A DNA stretch of 64,000 nucleotides from an uncultured Methanosarcinales archaeon (lineage in GTDB: Archaea > Nanobdellota > Nanobdellia > Woesearchaeales > CAZYIM01): contig CAZYIM010000002.1 of the NCBI GenBank assembly GCA_964647565.1, positions 1 to 64,000 of the forward strand, read 5' to 3'. Position 1 is the first letter of the stretch; each line of letters begins with the position of its first letter. Made by a program: the position numbers and the translations under genes. The notes beneath the pieces were generated by a model, which saw nothing but the letters and a program-made list of their open reading frames with translations, was not told where the DNA came from and did not search any database. Below are positions 1,920-56,936 of this stretch, one piece after another.

Positions 1920-3095
1920 TTAGAACAACAAGAATATTAGTGCAAAAGCACCTCCGAAATAGAATGCTGCATTAAAGTTAGTGCCAACAATGACAATCAG
2001 AAATAAAAAGAGCAAAATCCTGCCAGTTGCCAATGAAAATTCTTTGAAGGTTAAGAATTCCAGAGGGGATTGGGCTTTGTGCGATCTGTGATACAGATGC
2101 TCCTCGTAGGGTATGTCGAGTAAGATGCTTATGATTCCTGAGGCCAACGATAGATAGTAAAGCACTTCTGATTTCGCAAAATAACCAAAGACTAAGAAGA
2201 GAAGGGCGCTTAATACAGCACCAATCCTAATTAGTTTAGCTAATCCATGATTATCTATCAGTCTGCCAACATAAATAGTAAAAAAAGCACCAATAAAAGA
2301 GATCAGGGAAACAATAAGGCCAAGAGATACAGGATTTTGGGATGCAAAATAAAGTGCAAGAGGCAGGATAATATATAGTACAAATCCCTTGATGCCGTAT
2401 GAATTAAGTAAAACAACCTCTTTGATGTCAGTCCTGAAATTCTTGAATCTCTTAAAATTGAAATTTGGATGGTCTACATTTTTCTTAATAAAAGAAAGAG
2501 GTATCAAGGAAACAAAGAGTAAAACAGCCACAAGAATAAAGAGTGATATAAAACCAAATTGCAGAGCAATCAAACCGCCAATAAAAGGACCTATAATAGA
2601 CGCTAATTTTGGTAGACCTAAAAACTTCCCTACTTTAATGCCCTGGCTTTTTTCACCTAGGAATTTTGCAAACAACGATGTTATTGACAGGGTGTATAAT
2701 GCTCCTGAGAAACCGATCAGTACAGGTATGAAATAATAAAACTGCTGGATGAGCATGCTTGTTTTCATCAGGCTGAGCAATAAGAGGGCAGCCACATAAA
2801 TGGGTGTGCGTATATATATGATTTCTTTTAGGCCGATCTTATGGATGATCTTGGCATATAATGGTGATAAGAGGCCGAATGTGGCCCATTGGATCAATAG
2901 GAAGATGAAGACTGCAGTGATATTAAAACCTATGGTCAGTAGATAGATTGGTATGAAGATTGATATCAGTGAGACTGTGAATCCCTGTATAATCAGGTGC
3001 CAGTATATATGACTTAGCTTATCCTTGAGCAAGTGTACCTTGTCAAGATGATGATGGTGATTATTGGTGAACATTATCAAATCATTGTATGGCAT
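1920..3095 (-). CDS. MFS transporter
   Basis: About 12 hydrophobic segments, MFS motif A-like GRLIDNHG, His-rich N-terminus. Confidence 0.85.
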   Translation of the reverse strand: MPYNDLIMFTNNHHHHLDKVHLLKDKLSHIYWHLIIQGFTVSLISIFIPIYLLTIGFNITAVFIFLLIQWATFGLLSPLYAKIIHKIGLKEIIYIRTPIYVAALLLLSLMKTSMLIQQFYYFIPVLIGFSGALYTLSITSLFAKFLGEKSQGIKVGKFLGLPKLASIIGPFIGGLIALQFGFISLFILVAVLLFVSLIPLSFIKKNVDHPNFNFKRFKNFRTDIKEVVLLNSYGIKGFVLYIILPLALYFASQNPVSLGLIVSLISFIGAFFTIYVGRLIDNHGLAKLIRIGAVLSALLFLVFGYFAKSEVLYYLSLASGIISILLDIPYEEHLYHRSHKAQSPLEFLTFKEFSLATGRILLFLFLIVIVGTNFNAAFYFGGAFALIFLLF

Positions 3096-3154
3096 CTTTT
3101 TATAGGTTTTGGTTCATGAATAACTTTTTAAACACATTAAATTTTCAACTAGTC

Positions 3155-3724
3155 ATGAATCATATTCTTGAGGTGAGAAGACAGCTGTTCCATCTTATAT
3201 GCGGATTGGTGTTTTTCTTTTTGGTTGTACATCTTGATTTCCCATCATATCTGTATGTTGCAATTATCACAATGGTTGTTGGAGTTGTCCTAAAACTGTA
3301 TTATGATCATAATAAACCACACCTTATCTGGAAGATACTTTCGTTTTTTGACAGAATCAAGCCGAATGAATTCGCTGGCAAGGGATCATTTTATTTTATT
3401 ATTGGCATTATAATCTCAATGTTCTTTCCAAGGGATATAGCTCTGGCATGTATCTTGGTTGTTTCAATCTCAGATGCACTGTCCACCCTTATTGGCAAGA
3501 TCTTTGGCAGGACTAAGATGTTCAGCTGGTCATCAGCGACATTGTTAGGCACTGCAGCGTTCTTGATTTCAGCAATGATCATCCTGGTTTTCTTTGTTCC
3601 TTTTTGGAAAGCACTGGCTATTGCACTTATATTAAGTCTGATAGAAAGTTTTGACTATCATGGATTCATTCTCGATGATAATTGGATAGTGCCTTTGCTT
3701 TGCGGTGTTTTTATGCTGTTGTGA
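3155..3724 (+). CDS. Dolichol/phytol kinase-like (CTP_transf_1/SEC59 family) membrane protein
   Basis: EVRRQLFH start and SDALSTLIG..FG and DDN motifs; ATG 3155 preferred over the ORF-track start. Confidence 0.85.
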   Translation: MNHILEVRRQLFHLICGLVFFFLVVHLDFPSYLYVAIITMVVGVVLKLYYDHNKPHLIWKILSFFDRIKPNEFAGKGSFYFIIGIIISMFFPRDIALACILVVSISDALSTLIGKIFGRTKMFSWSSATLLGTAAFLISAMIILVFFVPFWKALAIALILSLIESFDYHGFILDDNWIVPLLCGVFMLL

Positions 3725-3725
3725 T

Positions 3726-4316
3726 TTAGATTTTCTTTACCAGTTTCTTCATCTTTGCTCCAATCAGCTTTAACCTCAAGAATATAACGAAGTGGCCTAT
3801 TGCATATCCTAGCATGATGCCAGCAACTACATCGCTGAAATAGTGCAGGTCCAGGTACATCCTGCTAAAAGCGATTAAAAGGCCCAGGCTTACCCAGAAC
3901 CATTTCAAGGCTTTATACTCTCTATCTAGGATGGGAATCAGGCAGAAGCAGAACATTGCATGGAAGCTTGGAAAAGAATAGTCCGGGATGCCAAGGATGA
4001 ACTGGGGTATCAATCTTGGTCTGGCAACAATAAACTTGATGATATAGCCTATGATGCCTGCGATAGCGACAGAGAACCACATCGGGATTATCCAGCCACG
4101 TTTCTTGTCTGCCCACATGAACAGTGTTGTTATTATCAATAGAAGCAAGACTACAAAGCCAGGATTGGTTATGTAGTGGAAAAAAGAGACTAAGGGTGGG
4201 GCTTGGATACTATGGATTAGATCCACAATGAAATCATCGATAAAGAAGCCGATTATAACAAGGACTGTCAGACTGATGATAATTATATTCTCCTTGCTAT
4301 TGAAGATGCGCTTCAT
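3726..4316 (-). CDS. PAP2-family membrane phosphatase
   Basis: KFIVARPR, SFPSFH and SRMYLDLHYFSDV motifs; the upstream ORF extension overlaps the tRNA, so start set at 4316. Confidence 0.9.
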   Translation of the reverse strand: MKRIFNSKENIIIISLTVLVIIGFFIDDFIVDLIHSIQAPPLVSFFHYITNPGFVVLLLLIITTLFMWADKKRGWIIPMWFSVAIAGIIGYIIKFIVARPRLIPQFILGIPDYSFPSFHAMFCFCLIPILDREYKALKWFWVSLGLLIAFSRMYLDLHYFSDVVAGIMLGYAIGHFVIFLRLKLIGAKMKKLVKKI

Positions 4317-4319
4317 GAA

Positions 4320-4478
4320 TGAGCCTGCGAGGAAATTCGTCTTGAAACGAAATCCTTGTGAACTTCGTTCCCAAGTATTCGAACCCCGGTCAACCGGTTT
4401 CATCAGATTTGTTCTTCCGAAGCCGGCCGCACTATTTGCCCAATCCGAGAATGGATTCCCAGACTATGCTACAGGCCC
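4320..4478 (-). tRNA. tRNA-Arg(TCG) with three introns (D-loop 4436-4458, 37/38 4399-4416, T-loop 59/60 4334-4377)
   Basis: Removing 23+18+44 nt gives a 74-nt cloverleaf: GGGCCTG/CAGGCTC acceptor, GCAT/GTGC D-stem, GCCGG-CTTCGGA-CCGGT anticodon arm, CGGGG-TTCGAAT-CCTCG T arm. Bulge-helix-bulge-like junctions (relaxed for the anticodon and T-loop introns). Confidence 0.9.
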
Positions 4479-4577
4479 TTGTTTAAAGTAAGTTTAATTA
4501 TCTCTTTTTTAAATATTTGTTTTTATAAGACAACATTTATATTATTAGATAGATTCCTTTGCATTTGGTGGCAATTG

Positions 4578-5573
4578 ATGGAGATTAACAATATCAGTCT
4601 TAACCGGCTCAAACTTGATAAGTGTCATGGTCTTGAAATAAGAGGTAGATGGAGGGCAGCTATTGAAGGCTATACCCAGATGGTTTCTATTCTAGATGAG
4701 CAGAATCCTATGTATGCAGAGATCCTGAATGGTCGTGGTATTGTCAAGAGGATGTTGGGATCTTTTGAACCTGCTTTATCTGATTTTATGCTGGCAGGGA
4801 AAAAAGCACAGGATGATGCACAGAAAGCCGCTGCTATGATCAATATTGCTGATCTGAATCGGGTTGGTTATGCTGATTATGTTTCGGCTCATGGGCATCT
4901 TGATGATGCAAAGGAGATTATCTCAGAACGAGAATTCTTGCTTCACGCCAGACTGGCAAATCAGCGTGGTCTGATTTATAGGGCCGAGAATGATATTGAG
5001 AAAGCCTTGACTGCACACATGAGTGCCAGAGACTACTCTGTTAAGCTTTTAACACAGGAGTCAGATCTGAAACCTGAGGACTCTAAAAACTATAATATGA
5101 TGAAGATATATGCAATGGCTTGTCAGAATATGGTAGGGGATAGCTTGTTGGGTGAACTCTTCTTGGATTTAGAGCATGTTGCAAAAGAAGCCATGGATGC
5201 TTTTTCATTGATTGGTGATAAGCAGGGTATGGTAAATTGTCTTTTAAACAAAGGTCATATATACAGGAGAAGGAAAGATAAGCTGGCAGCAATAGACAGT
5301 TTTGAGAGGGCCTCAGAGTTCGCAGATGATATTGATGGCAATGAGAGGACAAAAACAATCGTCAATCTTAACCTGGCAATATTATGTCTTCAGCAGAAAG
5401 ACGATACTCTGGCCACATATAATTTGAATCGGTTGGTCATAGGTGTTGCGACTGAAACCTTGTCTAGGCATGATAAGAATTCAGTTCTCCCATTGTTTGA
5501 TGAACTCAAAAAATTGTATTCGGATTCTTCCCTTAAGATTAAGGATTTTGAGAGGATCTCGGCTGTCTTCTGA
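4578..5573 (+). CDS. TPR-repeat protein
   Basis: LNGRGIVKRMLG and ANQRGLIYRAEN TPR-like helices; paralog of the next gene. Confidence 0.8.
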   Translation: MEINNISLNRLKLDKCHGLEIRGRWRAAIEGYTQMVSILDEQNPMYAEILNGRGIVKRMLGSFEPALSDFMLAGKKAQDDAQKAAAMINIADLNRVGYADYVSAHGHLDDAKEIISEREFLLHARLANQRGLIYRAENDIEKALTAHMSARDYSVKLLTQESDLKPEDSKNYNMMKIYAMACQNMVGDSLLGELFLDLEHVAKEAMDAFSLIGDKQGMVNCLLNKGHIYRRRKDKLAAIDSFERASEFADDIDGNERTKTIVNLNLAILCLQQKDDTLATYNLNRLVIGVATETLSRHDKNSVLPLFDELKKLYSDSSLKIKDFERISAVF

Positions 5574-5651
5574 GTATATAGTTTTAGTTGTATTAAAAGG
5601 AAATATTTATATCTATTTCTTGATTTCTTACCTTGATTATCAGGTGGAACT

Positions 5652-6683
5652 ATGAATAAAACTAATACAATTGAGGATCTTATTAACGAGGGCGCAGCCC
5701 TTGAGAAGTTAGGGAACTACAAGGAATCTGTCAGTATCTTGGATACAGCCTTTGACCGTGCTATAGCAGAGGATAGATCTATTATAGCTGCTATTCTGAA
5801 CCAGCGTGGCGTGGCAAAGAGAATGCTTCAGGATTATGAAGGTGCCATGAATGATTATACAGAAGTCTGGAATTACACTTCATCGGCCAGCGATTACCAA
5901 GAAATTCTCTCCAGAATCAATCTGGCAGACATTGAGAGAGTCTTTAGAACTGATTTCGAGGAAGCCCACGAATATCTTGATGGTGCAAAGGATCGGCTTG
6001 ATTATAAGACAGAGGATTGGAAAAATTATGAGCAAGAGGATCTTTTCCTAAAGATCAAGCTTGACAACCAAAGAGGCCTGGTCTATAGGGCTGAAAATAA
6101 GATGGATGAAGCGTTGGGAGCTCACAAGCGGACCAAGATAGCTGCCAGGAAATATCATGGCGGAGATTTTGATAAGGTTGAGGGTTTCAGGATGTTTGCA
6201 TCTGCCTGCCAGAACATTGCATCTGATGCCCTGATAATGACACCTCCTGATTATGATACTGCTGGTCGGGAAGCAGAGGAAGCGTATGTCACCTTTAAGA
6301 GCTTGGGTGACCAGCAAGGCATGTATAATTGTCTTGGTGCAATGGGCAACATTGCCAGGGTCCAGGGAGATTATGAAAAAGCTGAGATGTATTTTACAGA
6401 TACTATGATTCTTGCAGAAACCCTGAACTCAGGACGTGATATAACAGGTGCTGCATTGAATCTTGCTGAAATTTATCTGCTTGACGGTGCGCCTAATCTT
6501 GCCAAGGAAAACCTGATGCATTTTAGGGACGGCATCCTCAATGATAATGATTATACTGAACATGATATGGTATTAGCATACCTCAGGTTCAAGGAAGTGT
6601 ATCGTCTTTACTCAGATTCAGAGCTAAACATAAAGGACTTTGACAAGGTCAAGGAAAAGTTTGATTCTGTAATGAAGGCTTAG
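5652..6683 (+). CDS. TPR-repeat protein (tandem paralog)
   Basis: LNQRGVAKRMLQ, DNQRGLVYRAEN; shared C-terminus LYSDSxLxIKDF. Confidence 0.8.
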   Translation: MNKTNTIEDLINEGAALEKLGNYKESVSILDTAFDRAIAEDRSIIAAILNQRGVAKRMLQDYEGAMNDYTEVWNYTSSASDYQEILSRINLADIERVFRTDFEEAHEYLDGAKDRLDYKTEDWKNYEQEDLFLKIKLDNQRGLVYRAENKMDEALGAHKRTKIAARKYHGGDFDKVEGFRMFASACQNIASDALIMTPPDYDTAGREAEEAYVTFKSLGDQQGMYNCLGAMGNIARVQGDYEKAEMYFTDTMILAETLNSGRDITGAALNLAEIYLLDGAPNLAKENLMHFRDGILNDNDYTEHDMVLAYLRFKEVYRLYSDSELNIKDFDKVKEKFDSVMKA

Positions 6684-6696
6684 TTTCTGTTTTTTT

Positions 6697-6783
6697 TCAG
6701 CCATGGCGCTGGCGAGGGGAGGGACGGCTCCTACGGAGTCCCGAGCGAGGCTCGAAGAGCCGACAGCCGCCATGAATGGCTGG
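6697..6783. repeat. Structured GC-rich intergenic element, copy A
   Basis: CAGCCATGGCGCTG...CAGCCGCCATGAATGGCTG outer stem, cTACGg and cGAAg hairpins; homologous to 9561-9667. Confidence 0.75.
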
Positions 6784-6851
6784 ATTATTAGGATAGTAAG
6801 GTCTCATAAGAGAAATTTTTATATATAACCTTTATTATTGTTCTAATTAGT

Positions 6852-7496
6852 ATGTCCTTAAAAAAAGGAGGTGTGGTAGTAATATTTATATTAATATTAT
6901 TTTTATTCTCGTCGAGCGTCTTCGCTGCTTGCCAAGTCTCAATTGATAGGACCGTCTCTTCAGTAAAGAACAATCTTATCTTTGTTACAATCAAAGTCAA
7001 TGTTGAAGGAGATGCCAATAGCAATCTGGTTATTAGGGAGTTTTTCCCGAATGATTTTAAGGTGGCAGATACAACACCTCAAGCTGATATCAAGGCAAAT
7101 AGTATAATCTGGGAATTTGATGAAGCTGACGTAAATAGTCTTCCATTGATCAAGTATATTCTCATATTACCTCCGAGCTACCTGAAGAACGTTAGTGTCC
7201 ATGGAGAGTGGGAGACCAGCTATAGGGTTGAGAGGACACAATCGAGCTCCCTTTTCAAGAATGTTTCAGATGAATACTTGCCGGGGGATTCAAACAAGAA
7301 ACTTGGATCTTTTATTGATCGCTTTGTTGAGAGTGTTTTCCTGAATGTGAATCAGCCTTCGCCTGGCCAAGATTCCGCCTCCCAGACGCCTGGCTATGTT
7401 AAATTTCTTGTGATATTTGGAGTGCTCCTGGTTTTGGTATTTGTGTTTTTATTCGGAGTCATTTTTATTGATCTAGTCCTTAGAAGAAGATACTAA
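6852..7496 (+). CDS. Surface protein: signal peptide, beta-rich (Ig-like) domain, C-terminal TM anchor
   Basis: N-terminal hydrophobic stretch ending VFA; C-terminal TM followed by RRR. Confidence 0.7.
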   Translation: MSLKKGGVVVIFILILFLFSSSVFAACQVSIDRTVSSVKNNLIFVTIKVNVEGDANSNLVIREFFPNDFKVADTTPQADIKANSIIWEFDEADVNSLPLIKYILILPPSYLKNVSVHGEWETSYRVERTQSSSLFKNVSDEYLPGDSNKKLGSFIDRFVESVFLNVNQPSPGQDSASQTPGYVKFLVIFGVLLVLVFVFLFGVIFIDLVLRRRY

Positions 7497-7559
7497 AATT
7501 GTAACTTTGTGGTGTCAAGAAAAGGTTTTTATATGACCTGATGGTATGAGAGTTTCACA

Positions 7560-8090
7560 ATGAACTCTATAGATTTAGCCACAAGCCAATTTTATTCAAC
7601 AATTGACAACATTACAACATATGATGGACATATTGCAGAATACCTGGCCAAGAAATCAGGCCTTTTCGATCTTGGTGTCAAGTCCTTGGAGATGTATCTG
7701 CCTGCTGTTGTTTATCAGGTTGAAGGTGTAAATGGTTTTGATATCATGGTGCCACCTTTATCTACTTCAGAGGATGGCAGAAAGTATTGTGAATACCACA
7801 CTCATGATGACCTCTTTTGGCTGGCTTTTGGCATCCACAAAGGATCTGTAGAGTGGAAGGGGACAGGGTATTTTGCCAAGGAACCTGATGATCTGTGGAA
7901 TATATTGTTGCTTAGATATTTTGACCAGATTTGTATGACTGAAAAGCACATCCAGGATGTAGCTGACATGGTGGACTGCTATGATATTGAGAGGCTTTTC
8001 ATAACCACGCCAGATAAGTTCAGGCCGACAGGTAGAGTCTATATGCGTGAAGGTATATTTGATTTGAGAGATGATTTGCTAGAGCAATAA
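7560..8090 (+). CDS. Hypothetical protein
   Basis: 176-aa ORF filling the intergenic space; no motif recognised. Confidence 0.6.
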   Translation: MNSIDLATSQFYSTIDNITTYDGHIAEYLAKKSGLFDLGVKSLEMYLPAVVYQVEGVNGFDIMVPPLSTSEDGRKYCEYHTHDDLFWLAFGIHKGSVEWKGTGYFAKEPDDLWNILLLRYFDQICMTEKHIQDVADMVDCYDIERLFITTPDKFRPTGRVYMREGIFDLRDDLLEQ

Positions 8091-8142
8091 AAGCTAACGC
8101 TAGAAAAATATTAGTTACTCCCCCCAATAAAAAAAGAAATTC

Positions 8143-8430
8143 TTATTTCTTTATCAACACTATTTCAATTGTTGATACCCTGACTTCTCTTCCTTCCTTG
8201 TTTTGGAAAGTCTCTGAGTCTATCTTTATGTCTTTAACCTCGACTTGGTCTTTCATGAACCGTTTAGTGGCTACTTCTGAGACATCTACAGCCCTGGAGA
8301 TAAACTTCCCCCTCGCTTTAATTATTATCTCGTCGGCTCCTTTGGTCGTGAACTGGATTACAACACCAGTTACATAGTTCATGAAGGGCTTGGTTCCGAT
8401 AAAGATAGAATTGTCTTTATCCTCTGCCAT
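8143..8430 (-). CDS. albA: DNA/RNA-binding protein Alba
   Basis: IFIGTKPFMNYV, IKARGKFISRAVDV and VSTIEIVL match Alba. Confidence 0.97.
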   Translation of the reverse strand: MAEDKDNSIFIGTKPFMNYVTGVVIQFTTKGADEIIIKARGKFISRAVDVSEVATKRFMKDQVEVKDIKIDSETFQNKEGREVRVSTIEIVLIKK

Positions 8431-8435
8431 TCACA

Positions 8436-8627
8436 TCACCCGCTTGTTTTCTTCTTAAGTTTTGTTGCATATCCTGCGATAATATTTCTCAGTTTCTTTG
8501 ATTGTGTCTTAGTCAACTCATCAACAGTTCTCTTGTTCTCTTCAAAGTCAGTTGAAAATTTCTCTTCGTACTTTTCCATCAAATCTTCTGTATTCTTTTT
8601 CGCTAGTCTAGTCTTAATTCTGCCCAT
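8436..8627 (-). CDS. rps17e: 30S ribosomal protein S17e
   Basis: MGRIKT...FSTDFEENK...SKKLRNIIAGY. Confidence 0.97.
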   Translation of the reverse strand: MGRIKTRLAKKNTEDLMEKYEEKFSTDFEENKRTVDELTKTQSKKLRNIIAGYATKLKKKTSG

Positions 8628-8689
8628 ATTAGCCTCGAGAAACAATAGTGCCTTTTTAAATGTTGCTATTTCTGAGTTAATCGAGACGA

Positions 8690-34095: not shown

Positions 34096-34171
34096 TTCTT
34101 TTCTTCTTTTTTTCTTTTTCTTTTTATTACCGTAATATTTTAATAATAGTTAGTTCAGGATTTGTTTTAGG

Positions 34172-35614
34172 TTGAAAGAGAAGAGGTTTGTTAGTTTTTT
34201 GTTAGTTGTAGTTTTATCTATGGCTTTGGCTCTTGTTTTTTTGGATTTTGTTCCTTCTGGTGGTTTGGCGGGTGTTGGTTTGAGTTGTGATTCTGTTTGT
34301 TTTGATGGTGGTTATAGTCGTGGTTTTTGTTTGCCTGAGAGTGCGGGTTGTGTTATTGAGGGTAGTGTTCATGAGGGTGTTGGTGATGTTTTTTGTTCTG
34401 AGCGGTTGTCTGTTGATTCTTTTTGTTGCTGTTTGGGTATTAGTCAGGATACTGATGGGGACCGAAATGTTTTGACTAAGTCTGTTGGTGTTGAGTTTGT
34501 TTATGCGGTTGGTCAGAGGGTTGCGAAGGTTGAGGGTGAGGATGTTTTCTTTTTTGTGAATGATCATTTGGGTAGTCCTAGGCGGGTTTTGGATGTTGGT
34601 GGTGCTGTTGTTTCTGAGTTGGATTTTTTGCCGTTTGGTGGTGAGATGACTGCTAGTGGTGAGGATTTTAAGTATACTGGCAAGGAGTTGGATTTTGATT
34701 CTGGTTTGCATTATTATGGTGCTCGTTTTTATGATTCTGTTCTTGGCAGGTTTGTTACGCCGGATATTGTTGAAAAGTTTCCTAATCCTTATGTCTATGT
34801 TGCGAATAATCCTATGAGAAATATCGATCCTACAGGTGAGCAGGTTGTGAATCTTGCTGGCCGGCAAAAACAATTAGCAGCCGTAACTAGTTGGACCAAA
34901 AAACACATGCCTGAGCCTGTCTATAATGTCCTGAATTTTGTTTTAGGATTCGATGAGTCTATGGAGACTAGAATGAAGAATTCACTGACAGATATGCTCC
35001 TGCCTATGTCTTCAGTTGAAAAGGTTGCTAAGAAGGGGGGTAGCAAGATACTTGACAAGGTGGGATCCTGGTTTCGGAAAAAGTTCAGATCTGCGCCAGT
35101 TAAGCAATATGGTCCTCATTCTAACAGGGAATTCGGAAGGATATACAACCAATTGCGAGAGTGGGGTGCTGATTGGGAGGCGGACGATTTTCTTAAGCTT
35201 CACCAGGCAGACCAGGTTCAATACGGAGATCTGGGATTTAATGTGTTTGTAAGCAAGAATCCGACTGGAGGATACTGGAAGTCCAGTGATATATTTACTG
35301 ACAGGCTAGGTGGTCGAATCAATCTGGGACCTGAGCTTGGTGTCACAATAATGGATATGCCGCGAGTCCCTTACTTTTGGGGGTTTGGTAGAAAACGAAT
35401 GAAAGATGCCACTGCCTTTGAGGCTTCGGTTGTGATGCACGAACTTCAGCATAAGATGAATCCTGGTATGTCTGAAAAAGGAGTGGTTTGGCAGACCATT
35501 CGTCGAAAGCTAGGGTTGGATGTGGACTACATGCGGCCTAGCGAGGATTTTGTGCTGATTAATAACAGGTTAAGTGATAATTATCTAGACATGGCTAAGA
35601 ACGGTATCAAATGA
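34172..35614 (+). CDS. Rhs core+payload module 1: N-terminal TM, 8-Cys module, Rhs-associated core, HExxH C-terminal domain
   Basis: DHLGSPR, YTGKELD.DSGLHYYGARFYD..GRF, NPMRNIDPTG (ends 34837); payload contains VVMHELQH. Confidence 0.9.
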   Translation: MKEKRFVSFLLVVVLSMALALVFLDFVPSGGLAGVGLSCDSVCFDGGYSRGFCLPESAGCVIEGSVHEGVGDVFCSERLSVDSFCCCLGISQDTDGDRNVLTKSVGVEFVYAVGQRVAKVEGEDVFFFVNDHLGSPRRVLDVGGAVVSELDFLPFGGEMTASGEDFKYTGKELDFDSGLHYYGARFYDSVLGRFVTPDIVEKFPNPYVYVANNPMRNIDPTGEQVVNLAGRQKQLAAVTSWTKKHMPEPVYNVLNFVLGFDESMETRMKNSLTDMLLPMSSVEKVAKKGGSKILDKVGSWFRKKFRSAPVKQYGPHSNREFGRIYNQLREWGADWEADDFLKLHQADQVQYGDLGFNVFVSKNPTGGYWKSSDIFTDRLGGRINLGPELGVTIMDMPRVPYFWGFGRKRMKDATAFEASVVMHELQHKMNPGMSEKGVVWQTIRRKLGLDVDYMRPSEDFVLINNRLSDNYLDMAKNGIK

Positions 35615-38700: not shown

Positions 38701-39617
38701 TTAATGTTGGTGGAAGCAAGAAAGCCTATTATTTTGATGGCACTGATTGGCAGGTCCTTGATGACAGTGAGGAGGACATGGCCTTGCAGTTTGAAATAGA
38801 CCAACGGCAAGGAACTTCTGTAGGTTTCTTTGATTCCAGGGTCCTTGAATATGACTATGGTTTTGCTACACCTGAACTTTATTATGATACTATTGCATTG
38901 GCTGGTCCTAAAGTGGATAAGAACAACCTGCCTAAGATGACCAAGTTCTACAAGTCTGCTAAGAACAGGGCAAAGGGCAATGCAGTGACTTATCCAATAC
39001 AATCCAAGATTGTGGATGATGGTATTGGCCAGAAGATTACATATAGTTTTGACTTTGCAGAGGGCAAGCATGACTCAACCTTAAATACTGTTCAGTTCCA
39101 TAAGGCCACTGTTAACATGCCTGCAAATTCAGGTAGGATTGTAAATTATTTCTACAATGGATTGAGCAAGGAGGATGGCAGCCAGTTCCCTGACAAGGTT
39201 GGAGGTCTTAATTTTGAAAAACTAAATGGTCTCACATACAAGTCTGAGACTCTGGCAGCAGACAGCAGCAAGGTTGGAGAGTCCTATAACCAATATGAAA
39301 TTATCAACAAGGGCCACTCGTCTTTCCTTGTACGCGGAACAAAATCAGAGACCAGTGTTGATGGAGTTACTTTGTTTACTGAATACGAGTTTAATGAACT
39401 TAATGGCATGCCTAAGAAGACCATTGTCTATGACGCAAAGAATCCATCTAAGAAGCTCATCACTGAATCAAGATTTGCATTTGAGCAATATCCTGAAATG
39501 AAGGTTTACAATATGCTTACACAGCCCTTTGAGACCAAGACATATATTAATACACAGCTTGTCAGGGTCAATAAGGTTGCATATAAAAATTGGAAAATCA
39601 GCGGAGGCGGTAACTAG
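35772..39617 (+). CDS. TcB/SpvB-like Rhs shell, N-terminal part: signal peptide, propeller-like repeats, Cys-rich insertion
   Basis: SIPLFSLSGRSG..LAASY..GWLGLGW, WHL..SDGFGNKVTYQY, VYNWDGxKW repeats; the frame extends upstream of the GTG at 35928 to an ATA-started signal peptide. Confidence 0.85.
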   Translation: MKKVGWVLVVIALLLLSSIFIYADGDEGEGEENENPTDLNKVIGTPDDRFEVVPTNFQNIDLFSGEISESIPLFSLSGRSGMGFSLAASYTSNYDAEKENSEQPAGWLGLGWNFGFGAVTANTKGTANFEDDTFYLNNEKLIKIPGTENQYKLKNYRYVKIFRVVKDSKINYWVVYNEDGSMTIFGQVPNAISYMIGKGDWVGNVFEGDTELTPTAWHLYRQSDGFGNKVTYQYQKTDEYLKSDSWQSKYPYTKAIYPKKVIDTIGREIVFNLANKEIDEYYDPYPFPEPDSYIEFYEDKYLDNIVVYNPDKTQSQSVTFEYELVGSGQFKKRLLKSITKSIYNGGQWNPLPKTVFNYNAVSELKPAALKKIEHPTGGSTEYQYKEQELAYTKLDGSLQQDQTQVGYLGNNYMVVKHGSVKSNNYYFLGKYSVARDISVYNWDGHKWADKQDFAISTDKRNLHIHSGPDYFLVRPVQSDEFTMFQRHGDKWEKETTIKFDHQFEISGNLDLAEQTYVTEKEISVYPMQDNLFLVYGRNHHKVKAYHKKLNAQNRVEWSQVTLPKHQFSGYVRVWPSNNFFVLRHGSEGKKIDVYNWENDKWIRKNNAMNIGAGVMDVTVGDDFFIITDADKKLHIYEFKGDSWVEVQNKNLANSHLAKVSAGNNFFVLGYFNGDNVKLFERINNHQWQIESSAKTLFTSSSGHKIFDVFANNKYIAIVTRKKTDHSHTYYFTVFNKINNQWVQKKTNEKIGKVFTQGQYQLQENNWRYSDISAQVSFGKDLLTVSLLDTTYQQTESFDVIAPDNPINPNYQAYQRCNANYQACLTPCESYNTNSYGGQFPLQECQLDCGSWNNNTFCFSVNELYSSVCESFKSCLTGFASSWSNKLLSCQSQCKSDCSTAESNYVPAANYQYDQCRRGCADAYEYNRDGFSCAKCFWSDLGEICNFGECSWDKLGGGVSAARCHKDHYEYPLSKYLFNVGGSKKAYYFDGTDWQVLDDSEEDMALQFEIDQRQGTSVGFFDSRVLEYDYGFATPELYYDTIALAGPKVDKNNLPKMTKFYKSAKNRAKGNAVTYPIQSKIVDDGIGQKITYSFDFAEGKHDSTLNTVQFHKATVNMPANSGRIVNYFYNGLSKEDGSQFPDKVGGLNFEKLNGLTYKSETLAADSSKVGESYNQYEIINKGHSSFLVRGTKSETSVDGVTLFTEYEFNELNGMPKKTIVYDAKNPSKKLITESRFAFEQYPEMKVYNMLTQPFETKTYINTQLVRVNKVAYKNWKISGGGN

Positions 39618-54425: not shown

Positions 54426-56126
54426 TCATAGGAAAACACTCAATAGGCCTCCAATTAAGGCATTTGAGACAAAGTATAGAAGGACAGTGACAATTATGAA
54501 AACAGGGATAAATTTGATGCCCTGCTTGATATTGCCCTTCTTGATTGTAGCGATTATGCAGGAAGAGAAAAATGAGGTTATTGTCAGTGAAACAATAGCA
54601 AATATGGTCAATGATTGTATACTTATAGAATCTCCTGACATGTTCAGGCTGATCAGGCTACCGCTCGTGGGTAATGTACTCATATCAATACCACCGACAA
54701 TCTGGGTTATGATAGCTACCAATTGGGTTGCAAGGCCTAATAAGACAGGCGCACCTACAATAGTTGCAAAACCAATGAAGATTACATAAGTGGTGACATT
54801 GGCAGCCATCTCCTTTTTTAGCAACCTGGTTTCTTGGATGTCTGTCGCGATCTTTGAAAGGAGCTCAGCAAGCTCTCCTCCTGCTTCCAGACCCTCTAAT
54901 AATATGTTGATAGATCGTTTTAAAACCTTTGAATCAAACTTATTAGCAAAATTACGTAGTGCATTCTGCAGGTTCTCTCCTGCAATAGTGGCTTTGGCCA
55001 CCTCTTGTATCTCAAGGGCCAGTATGCCAAATCGAGGCCTTACAGCCGCCCACATTGCCTTTTCAATGGTCATGCCTGCGCTGATATTTGCAGATGTTAG
55101 CTGGAGGAAATCTGGCAGCACATCTTCAACCTGCAGTCTTCTGTGGAATATACGAAGGTCTACAACTACATAAATAAATAACCATGTAATGAGCAGTAAA
55201 AACACAAATACAAAGGTCCATAAAATAACAATAAACAACAATACCTTTAGAACATTAGTGTTATTTAGTCCGAAAATGACTAGGAAGAACGCTGTTGCTG
55301 CAAGGCAAAGTATGAGTGCGATCTTGAATGTCTTGGCCTTAAGGGAGGTTTCATCTGTTTGAGTAAGACCTGCCTTTTGGAAATATTCTTTGACAATCTT
55401 CTTTTTCACAGACTTTTTTTGGTGTTTGAGCTCATCTTTGGACTTTACAGCTTTTTCTATTTTATACGATTTGTTCTTTCTTAATATAGTTCTGACTCTG
55501 ATATCAACAAATAAATAAAACAAGCCCCATCCCACTAAAAAGATTAATGCAAAGACCAGAGTCCAAAGGAGTCCGATGAATATCAGTAGCTTCATTACCG
55601 AATTGTGGGAGATGGCAGAACTTATCAGGGAAACTATAGATATGATTAAGCATATTGTTACTGATATCCTGAAAATCAATCTTTGCATAGACTGCTCGTT
55701 TAAATGTCTGAGACCTGCTTTCTCAGCATAGTTTTTGAAAATAAGCTGCTCCTTATGCAAAAGCCGTTCAAACAGGTTTACTGGTTTTTTCAAGGGGAGG
55801 TGATGCTTTTCATGCTTTTTTTCTTTTATGGTGGGAGTTTTTGTTTCGAGTGGTTTCTCTTCTTTTTGTTCTGGTTGGCTTAGTTTTAGCTTCTTTAATC
55901 TAAAACTTGGTCTGGAAGGGCGGATTTTAGAGAATAATGTGCTTAAATGTTCTTTTATATTAAAGGAAGGTCTTGTCTTTTTTGGTTCTGGAGTTTTTGT
56001 ATCTGTCTTTGGAACTTTTTGTTTCTGAGGTTTAGCAGGGCTCTTCTTTTCTGTAACCGCCTGCACATTATCTTCACCCATAATTTTATCATAATCATCC
56101 AGCATGTCTTTGATGTCTTTTGTCAT
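54426..56126 (-). CDS. Pilus platform protein (TadC/T2SS-F-like) with duplicated N-terminal TM module
   Basis: VEDVLPDFLQLTSANISAGM..FGIL..E T2SSF domain. Confidence 0.9.
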   Translation of the reverse strand: MTKDIKDMLDDYDKIMGEDNVQAVTEKKSPAKPQKQKVPKTDTKTPEPKKTRPSFNIKEHLSTLFSKIRPSRPSFRLKKLKLSQPEQKEEKPLETKTPTIKEKKHEKHHLPLKKPVNLFERLLHKEQLIFKNYAEKAGLRHLNEQSMQRLIFRISVTICLIISIVSLISSAISHNSVMKLLIFIGLLWTLVFALIFLVGWGLFYLFVDIRVRTILRKNKSYKIEKAVKSKDELKHQKKSVKKKIVKEYFQKAGLTQTDETSLKAKTFKIALILCLAATAFFLVIFGLNNTNVLKVLLFIVILWTFVFVFLLLITWLFIYVVVDLRIFHRRLQVEDVLPDFLQLTSANISAGMTIEKAMWAAVRPRFGILALEIQEVAKATIAGENLQNALRNFANKFDSKVLKRSINILLEGLEAGGELAELLSKIATDIQETRLLKKEMAANVTTYVIFIGFATIVGAPVLLGLATQLVAIITQIVGGIDMSTLPTSGSLISLNMSGDSISIQSLTIFAIVSLTITSFFSSCIIATIKKGNIKQGIKFIPVFIIVTVLLYFVSNALIGGLLSVFL

Positions 56127-56129
56127 TTT

Positions 56130-56936
56130 TTACATTTCCATAGGAGGTCTTGATGACTTGATTATCGAGAGGAACATGAACTGCACAAAGCCCAGGAATC
56201 CTGCAAATAACAGTAATACTGTAAGGGATATCTTAATTCCGATAAAGAGGGACATGACAACCATAAAGGCTGTGCCTAATGAGGGAACAATGACTGCGAT
56301 CATCATGTAGAACATAGCTAATGGGTTAAGTTTTCTTCCATATTCCTTGACAGCGATCTGCTGCTGTCTGATAACCTGTGAAATGACTGTGTTTAAAGAG
56401 TTTGCAACATTGGCGCCAGTTCTCATGGAGTTGAGGATCTGCCACAAGATCTTTCTGAAGTTGGTTGAAGATGTGGTTGTGATCATCTCATTCAATGCAT
56501 CTTCAAGAGGTGTTCCAAGATCAACCTTCTGTACTACCTCATTGAAATATGGGCCGACAATATCATAGTTCTTGGCCAGGTTCTTGAATACCTGGTATAG
56601 CGGTACTCCTGATTCCAGCTCGATTATAAGGAATCTGCCTGCAAAGACCAACTCCTGGTCAATCTGCATATTGATCTTATCTATCTTAACATCTGCATAC
56701 CTAAGGAAGTACATGAATGCTATAAAGAAGACTATGGGCACGAAGAAGATCACCCCTATAGACTTTAAGAATGTGAAGAAGATGATAAGCAGTCCTACTG
56801 AAAGAAAAAGGGAGCTCATAAAGGTTCTTCTGACATATTGTTCAGGTGTATATGGCAGCCTTGCCTGTTCAAGTTTCAGGGCTAATCCTGGAATCTTCCT
56901 GGCAATATTTTTATAGAGCAGCATTTTAAAAATCAA
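56130..56936 (-). CDS. Pilus platform protein (TadB/T2SS-F-like)
   Basis: ELESGVPL, GTPLEDAL, YMMIAVIVPSLG. Confidence 0.88.
   Translation of the reverse strand: MIFKMLLYKNIARKIPGLALKLEQARLPYTPEQYVRRTFMSSLFLSVGLLIIFFTFLKSIGVIFFVPIVFFIAFMYFLRYADVKIDKINMQIDQELVFAGRFLIIELESGVPLYQVFKNLAKNYDIVGPYFNEVVQKVDLGTPLEDALNEMITTTSSTNFRKILWQILNSMRTGANVANSLNTVISQVIRQQQIAVKEYGRKLNPLAMFYMMIAVIVPSLGTAFMVVMSLFIGIKISLTVLLLFAGFLGFVQFMFLSIIKSSRPPMEM

Follow-up and report, generated by a model that had tools for sequence, protein, structure and literature searches.

The window analysed here, the first 64 kb of contig C2 of an archaeal genome (G000), contains a gene for an Rhs-type polymorphic-toxin-like protein of 480 amino acids (aa) (m1; 34172..35614, +), whose 5' part is extremely poor in A and C on the coding strand. 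Between 34172 and 34864 (+), 93% of the third codon positions are G or T, G+T amounts to 74.6%, and the GC content is.413. We tentatively interpret this stretch as one of a class of tracts, here termed K3 islands, that are shaped by a recombination-linked, coding-strand-specific, and tract-limited drive against A and C, and we estimate the probability of this reading at roughly 0.42. K3 denotes the share of third codon positions that are G or T, and K1 and K2 denote the same share at the first and second positions, respectively.

The base composition of 34172-34775 was A.142, C.084, G.326, and T.447, compared with A.284, C.183, G.216, and T.317 in the window. The G+T (keto) share over 300 nucleotides (nt) peaked at.813 at 34149, the highest among 2,651,027 windows of this size in the genome and approximately 6.6 standard deviations above the genome mean (.498, standard deviation.048). 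K1, K2, and K3 were.72,.58, and.93 in 34172-34864 and.49,.49, and.63 in 34865-35611, respectively, and a strict segment of 200 codons within the island (34217-34816) reached 96% K3. Of the 2118 open reading frames (ORFs) with 150 aa or more (mean K3.52, standard deviation.069), the m1 ORF as a whole had the highest K3 value,.78. GC content was unchanged: the island has.413, the remainder of the gene.442, and the window.40. A first-pass annotation of this DNA had reported 52 of 60 G/T bases in 34261-34320 and 44 of 60 in 42241-42300 of a paralogue (m2), third positions that are nearly all T or G, the replacements CAT>TTT, GCA>GTT, ACT>GTT, and TAC>TTT, and retention of cysteines and core motifs. 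Our recount was exact, the K3 of.93 agrees, all four replacements were present in the m1/m2 codon alignment, and this alignment together with a TIGR03696 match confirmed that the cysteines and the core motif are kept.

The m1 protein consists of a hydrophobic N-terminal segment, a Cys-rich region, an RHS repeat-associated core domain (aa 154-222; 34631..34837, +), which ends in a DPxG motif and is the last conserved part before the variable region, and a variable C-terminal (payload) domain of ordinary composition (34865..35611, +). It is preceded by a promoter-like, AT-rich, non-coding leader (34134..34171, +). The core domain of the Rhs / YD-repeat polymorphic toxin module, with a DPxG-type motif at its end, is present in m1, m2 (42111..43520, +), and a third paralogue on contig C8 (m3; 45834-47213), with TIGR03696 (Rhs_assc_core) scores of 70.7, 78.1, and 73.7 bits, respectively (cut-off 32.5). 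The three proteins have the same build, with a common core and mutually unrelated C-termini; m2 is 67% identical to m1 over the first 215 aa, and m3 is 87% identical to m1. The core part of m2 (42111..42797, +) is more weakly skewed (K3.75, keto.623). The long YD-repeat shell is missing from m1, which contains no more than the final repeats (the Pfam RHS match, at 16.8 bits, lies below the cut-off). The skew had been described as fading before the payload at about 34775; a sharp drop before the payload was indeed observed, although slightly farther on, at ~34865 and ~20 codons past DPxG. The payload matched no Pfam family at E-values up to 1 and no NCBIfam family. Its translation contains an HExxH-like motif, which suggests a zinc-dependent hydrolase.

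Since the assemblies are metagenomic and the window stretch has only ~4x coverage, an assembly or sequencing artefact was considered. However, the sequence reappeared, with both borders bridged, in independent Logan contigs (4 runs of 2 studies, depth ~4x), the same in-frame pattern occurred in 4 separate assemblies and was conserved between two species, and the protein is homologous to normal Rhs cores; an artefact is hardly credible. Variants among the ~4x Logan contigs corresponded to the paralogue m3. The public runs that contain the stretch carry marine or seawater metagenome labels, and no RNA run was found among them.

A genome-wide scan of G000 revealed at least 8 coding K3 islands in 5 genes, namely m1, m3, and the genes for three large proteins: one of 5050 aa on C26, with four tracts (K3.98-1.00 over 100 codons), an Rhs-like one of 1993 aa on C62, and one of 3178 aa on C4. 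Island genes encode large membrane-anchored or secreted proteins, and the giant ones bear Laminin_G_3, RCC1, FG-GAP, PKD, DUF2341, and RHS domains. The borders are 1-3 codons wide; on average, K3 rises from.58 to 1.00 at entry and falls from.99 to.59 at exit, each within one 10-codon bin, and tract lengths range from 55 to ~1800 codons. A strict scan, which demanded 40 open codons on either side of an island, retrieved 17 island copies (6 in G000, 9 in the relative G078, and 2 in the relative G306), all 17 of which lay on the coding strand. The opposite class, islands with comparably pure A/C third positions, was not found, the minimum K3 in any 100-codon window being.12. The skew is not replichore-wide, as only 0.08% of 300-nt windows are so skewed and the same-strand neighbours of m1 are ordinary (K3.57-.65). 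As to whether comparable skew is common across the genome, which the first-pass annotation had regarded as decisive, it is rare by this measure, yet it recurs in several genes.

Homologous Rhs cores at 14 loci in 7 relatives had normal K3 values (.30-.61). The protein family does not require the skew, which was not seen in these homologous modules, a comparison that the first-pass annotation had suggested. Islands with a K3 of 1.00 over 60 codons were found in 3 of 20 giant-gene regions sampled from 20 genomes, and the phylogenetic spread given here refers to these regions and to one whole relative (G078). The relatives with islands were G306 and G078, which belong to one genus, and G047, which belongs to a different family. 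The whole G078 genome contained 6 distinct coding islands in 9 copies, every one on the coding strand; most of its remaining keto-extreme windows were rejected as islands and represented A-rich, Lys/Glu-rich coding or non-coding DNA. The G047 island comprises an estimated ~1830 codons, begins ~1160 codons into its ORF, and has a K3 of mostly 80-95% per 20-codon bin.

The giant gene that is orthologous between G306 and G078 carries an island at identical borders in both species. Third positions in ordinary sequence differ at.43 between these genomes, indicating saturated silent sites. In island B (220 codons), the differences at positions 1, 2, and 3 were.15,.141, and.045, respectively, compared with.18-.245,.13-.145, and.43 in its flanks; that is, third positions are ~10-fold less diverged than in the flanks, and positions 1 and 2 diverge normally. 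In island A (~400 codons), third-position differences were 0-.10 per 30-codon bin, with up to.20 in the bin at the 3' edge, compared with.36-.63 per bin in the flank. Because the islands keep their borders and their low third-position divergence amid saturated flanks, they cannot be the relic of one past event that has since decayed neutrally. Judging from these divergence values, the islands are old and actively maintained, with something holding their silent sites at G/T. No outgroup for the island gene was found within the family of G078 and G306, where the gene occurs in 2 of 6 genomes.

The substitution pattern was strongly directional. Between m2 and m1, 101 differences were amino-to-keto (A/C to G/T) and 23 keto-to-amino, and the m1 lineage, polarised with m2 as the outgroup, showed 11 amino-to-keto and 2 keto-to-amino changes. 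The first-pass annotation had proposed strand-asymmetric C>T and A>G mutation; the direction fits this proposal, but A>T changes (30) were as numerous as A>G (30) and C>T (30) changes. At two-fold sites, the changes from C to T and from A to G have gone to saturation (NNT 97.7%, NNG 96.1%). At four-fold sites, A and C were replaced by T and G stayed near the host value in three hosts of very different third-position GC content (GC3): G changed from.03 to.01 in G306 (T.97; host A.58), from.13 to.18 in G000 (T.78), and from.37 to.42 in G047 (T.46). Deamination (C>T, A>G) of a single-stranded non-template strand, associated with transcription or replication, under purifying selection and with no link to recombination, would account for the skew being on the coding (non-template) strand, for the saturated two-fold sites, and for the four-fold pyrimidine:purine ratio of G047, which was kept (.56:.44 to.54:.46) as transitions alone predict. 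It would also agree with UDG (PF03167) being undetected in 3 of the 4 island genomes (G078, G306, and G047; 92-100% complete). We nevertheless consider it improbable. In addition to the equal A>T and A>G counts between the paralogues, the four-fold sites of G306 went from A.58 to T.97 with only.01 G, and those of the G000 islands have T.78 and G.18 instead of the ~.55 and ~.45 to which transitions alone would bring the host background. Furthermore, the borders, 1-3 codons wide and the same in different species, fall within transcription units and at up to ~1160 codons from the start of an ORF; a diffuse exposure gradient would not be expected to produce them.

The codon pattern also ruled out wobble or tRNA-level codon selection. 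Leu in the G000 islands is encoded by TTG in 86% and by CTG in 5% of cases (18% and 17% in the background, respectively), and conservative first-position replacements shift A to G (Ile to Val, Thr to Ala, and Asn to Asp), with second positions left unaffected. Val accounts for 13.4% of island amino acids compared with 6.1% in the background and Ile for 2.3% compared with 6.3%, and Lys is depleted. The choice of TTG over CTG and the amino-acid shifts therefore place the force at the nucleotide level and not at the wobble level. It is a nucleotide-level force filtered by protein function, and neither tRNA preference nor simple deamination.

The same composition data bear on an origin outside the genome. 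Import from a common skewed replicon, an alternative raised by the first-pass annotation, is unlikely because island composition follows the third-position G content (G3) of each host. More generally, the islands might have been introduced by recombination from an extremely skewed replicon with all its genes on one strand, for example a rolling-circle or single-stranded element. In favour of this, the mosaic borders are razor-sharp, as recombination junctions typically are, island A is ~97% identical between two species in which the silent sites next to it are saturated, and T-rich third positions are a known tendency of single-stranded DNA viruses. Against this, both G3 and GC3 of the islands follow each host, and the amino-acid divergence of island B equals that of its flanks, which indicates no recent transfer. 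A scan of genome contigs yielded no donor and no relative of the m1 module, a scan of metagenome contigs yielded one distant locus with normal K3, and we know of no replicon with a K3 near 100%. Taken together, import is quite improbable. With homologous cores normal and island G near the host value, the drive, if it is one, is shown by these comparisons to act in place.

Evidence for a link to recombination came from duplicated tracts. The m1/m3 homology detected by blastn (34134-34836, 87.8% over 707 nt; or 34134-34830, 88.2% over 703 nt) includes the leader and almost equals the m1 island, and the first 84 codons of the two genes are identical. Farther on, m3 has a mosaic structure, in which two clusters of changes from keto to amino look like patches from an unskewed copy. 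A recent payload swap had been offered as the cause of the 3' boundary, and the common core with unrelated C-termini fits this, but the end of the m1/m3 homology describes the border better than payload age alone; the island would end where paralogue homology ends because the C-terminal payloads are unrelated and independently swapped. G078 holds three of its islands twice, at identities of 99.84% (1246 nt), 99.87% (747 nt), and 99.2% (261 nt). The members of each pair lie in paralogous genes or repeats, and the sequences flanking them have diverged or cannot be aligned. The identity tracts start at the exact 5' island border and end 6-25 codons beyond the end of the skew. One G078 pair is 99.87% identical within the genome compared with 88% between species. 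The G306 second copies, which are orthologous, are located at contig ends, and one of them is 98.3% identical to the G306 island and 91% to the G078 island. Paralogues that are more alike within a species than orthologues are between species, over a delimited tract, are the mark of concerted evolution, which by this sequence criterion is occurring in the relatives. The case for concerted evolution refers to these relatives; within G000, the m1/m3 tract is 88% identical. Keto-skewed tracts account for 4 of the 11 repeats in G078 and for 2 of the 6 in G000, where.9% and.08% of 300-nt windows, respectively, are so skewed, and by our own arithmetic the chance of such an overlap is ~1e-5 or less per genome.

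Under the proposed drive, A and C would be removed from the coding strand over a long time wherever the protein tolerates the change. The island tract is often what stays near-identical in paralogous genes and is, in that sense, the unit of gene conversion. The drive could take two forms. A and C might be damaged on the strand of coding polarity while it is single-stranded in recombination or R-loop intermediates, or the mismatches in heteroduplexes might be processed with a keto bias. In either form, purifying selection at the protein level would filter positions 1 and 2, and the process would be confined to the homology tract, whose frozen silent sites would in turn preserve the homology. 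Regarding the first form, UDG was undetected in 3 of the 4 island genomes. Regarding the second, NucS/EndoMS is present in all 4; the characterised archaeal enzyme acts preferentially on G/T, G/G, and T/T mismatches, whereas A/A, A/C, and C/C are poor substrates (PMC4838380). Heteroduplexes formed in tracts between paralogues or genome copies might thus be processed asymmetrically, with NucS/EndoMS seeing keto-keto (G/T, G/G, T/T) but not amino-amino (A/A, A/C, C/C) mismatches. Strand invasion with a polarity tied to transcription would then fix coding-strand G/T alleles at tolerated sites and write near-pure NNK codons, and the freezing of silent sites would perpetuate the homology that conversion needs. 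We regard this specific version, keto-biased gene conversion, as unlikely.

Several observations weigh against a recombination-linked drive. Second-position C is not depleted in the islands (.24 compared with.25), nor is first-position C in G047 (.14 compared with.13). Position 3 is almost frozen in island B, and A or C is involved in 60 of the 64 differences that fall on the first two codon positions, a pattern that a purely mutational bias explains poorly unless swapping among paralogues contributes. The G047 island has no second copy (the 4275 nt searched were single-copy in the assembly), and four G000 islands (C26 18484-19107, C26 20983-21354, and those on C62 and C4) have none at an identity of at least 80%; these single-copy islands rule out a duplicate as a necessary condition. 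Near-identity could also be a consequence rather than a cause, as frozen silent sites would keep paralogues recombinable. A mirror A/C-rich signature 3' of the islands was absent (47 vs 49 of 128 codons, Wilcoxon p =.68), and a fixed break with resection was therefore rejected, despite suggestive single cases. Finally, the recombination-linked drive leaves the constant coding-strand polarity of the G/T-rich strand without a reason.

Selection on the sense strand is a serious rival; in this reading, the mRNA or the single-stranded coding strand would have to be poor in A and C. Possible reasons include a U/G-rich signal on the mRNAs of secreted proteins, protection from an RNase that depends on A or C, or a structure-free GT-rich substrate preferred by a recombinase; RecA and Rad51 prefer GT-rich DNA. 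The near-identity of paralogues would follow, with frozen silent sites keeping the DNA recombinable. The coding-strand specificity of 17 of 17 island copies, the occurrence in genes for large membrane-anchored or secreted proteins, the conserved borders, the unchanged second-position C, and the freezing of position 3 with positions 1 and 2 evolving as in the flanks all point in this direction. The island strand is also almost structure-free as single-stranded DNA (predicted -0.9 to -6.6 kcal per 200 nt, compared with -16.3 +/- 5.0 for the genome). However, effective selection would be needed at hundreds to thousands of silent sites to reach a purity of 97-100%, and island RNA is only mildly less structured (-32 to -43 compared with ~-50 kcal per 200 nt). 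Moreover, the T:G ratio of.46:.42 in G047 fits C>T conversion of host third-position C better than free choice under the host bias (.11:.37). Selection on the sense strand is, in our estimate, somewhat unlikely.

Rewriting of the tract by reverse transcription, as by a diversity-generating retroelement (DGR), was also weighed. DGR targets are typically surface proteins, and the islands resemble them as sharply bounded, directionally rewritten tracts with conserved borders in surface-protein genes. The short unskewed tail of 6-25 codons at the 3' end of the identity tract presumably resembles a DGR homing signal. The islands differ from DGRs in that no reverse transcriptase was found: RVT_1 (PF00078) had no match in G000, G078, G306, or G047, two of which are 98-100% complete, and a control search was positive in 3 reference genomes. 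In addition, the paired copies are 99.2-99.9% identical without template/variable differences at adenines, C is removed along with A, and third positions are frozen rather than diversified. The absence of RVT_1 matches from all 4 island genomes led us to reject a DGR or other retro-mechanism, which is very improbable.

Among known systems, the nearest described counterpart of the m1 locus is the composition break between core and tip in enterobacterial rhs genes, where dissociated tips were delimited by a GC peak and core homology (Jackson et al. 2009, PMC2935791). The two cases share a conserved core fragment with a variable tip, as in C-terminal displacement, limits that show as a change in composition, and a core fragment that serves as the homology used for recombination. 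Here, however, GC is constant (.413 compared with about.40-.44), the change is a keto/amino one on one strand, with G/T shares of 93-100% at third positions, each module is a small but complete gene that encodes a hydrophobic N-terminus of its own, and the pattern also occurs in giant proteins other than Rhs. The islands further resemble GC-biased gene conversion in that the shift is confined to conversion tracts, is selection-like at silent sites, and is opposed by selection at the protein level; that process favours G:C and is strand-symmetric, whereas island GC is not raised (.413) and the bias is for G/T on the coding strand. A literature search, covering mostly listings and abstracts, returned no description of keto-biased conversion, nor of conserved tracts that have sharp bounds and almost exclusively G/T third positions and are linked to concerted evolution.

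Strand asymmetry from single-strand exposure, in which the exposed strand loses C and A, is seen in the mitochondrial heavy strand, single-stranded DNA viruses, transcription-associated mutation, and strand-coordinated mutation clusters. It shares with the islands the loss of C and A and a gain of G+T that is strongest at silent sites, but those cases are modest genome-, replicon-, or gene-wide gradients or one-off clusters, whereas the island tracts are bounded, near-pure, and conserved. Repeat-induced point mutation of fungi resembles the islands in that the limits of the mutational tract are those of the duplication; it differs in affecting both strands, in letting copies diverge, and in destroying frames, whereas the island copies are ~99% identical and their frames are open.

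The m1 island also contains an antisense ORF of 219 aa (34214..34873, -), which we regard as a by-product of the codon pattern. From the genetic code we infer that it is open because G or T at all sense third positions bars stops in the codon-aligned antisense frame. An overlapping antisense gene was rejected as the cause of the skew, since the ORF is an automatic by-product and positions 1 and 2 are constrained as in the flanks. Gene callers may therefore report spurious antisense genes over islands. The coding strand of the m1 island contains runs of 6-7 T at 34230-34245 and 34545-34560; such T runs can serve as terminator signals in archaea.

Upstream of m2 lies the gene for a large, unskewed YD/RHS-repeat protein of 836 aa (39617..42127, +; K3.65; Pfam RHS_repeat, 6.8e-44), which has no core end of its own and overlaps the start of m2 by 17 nt (42111-42127). 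Despite its own hydrophobic N-terminus, m2 may be a displaced or alternative tip of this protein. Directly upstream of the m1 locus are exosome subunit genes and an archaeal-type ProRS gene. The third-highest keto stretch of the window (55692-56137, up to.71 G+T on the + strand) overlaps the 5' part of a minus-strand ORF of 566 aa. G000 (2.68 Mb, 86 contigs, 87% complete) is larger than every one of 40 listed relatives of the same order (0.6-2.1 Mb) and was the sole representative of its own family and genus in the genome collection compared. The small genomes of these relatives suggest a DPANN-like lineage.

Elsewhere in G000, weaker patches of opposite sign (K3.10-.20 over ~100 codons) were observed in a P-loop ATPase-like gene (C33:27556-29247, +), in a gene whose translation looks integrase-like (C22:42457-43749, +), and in the gene for the Rhs-like giant protein on C62 (ORF 2652-8630, -), where the patch covers the multi-pass membrane N-terminus. 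These patches are possibly mobile-element DNA. A GT-rich strand at G000:C7:56475-56955 (L130 1091-1486, +) was rejected as a K3 island; it is the antisense of a small lipoprotein-like gene composed of Thr/Asn-rich tandem repeats of 22 aa, and its skew stems from amino-acid content.

Silent sites are normally the fastest-evolving positions of a gene, and here they are pinned to G/T by the hundreds for longer than neighbouring silent sites take to saturate. In-frame NNK runs provide a simple signature for locating such tracts in any genome. If the cause is linked to recombination, it would be a new force shaping coding sequences, and if it takes the form of keto-biased conversion, it would represent a new, strand-asymmetric kind of biased gene conversion. 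Such a force could mimic selection or horizontal transfer in composition-based screens, and it would shift amino-acid content, with Ile moving to Val and Lys depleted. It would also keep paralogous cassettes recombinogenic, which would bear on the swapping of Rhs payloads and on the variation of giant surface proteins in archaea with small genomes.

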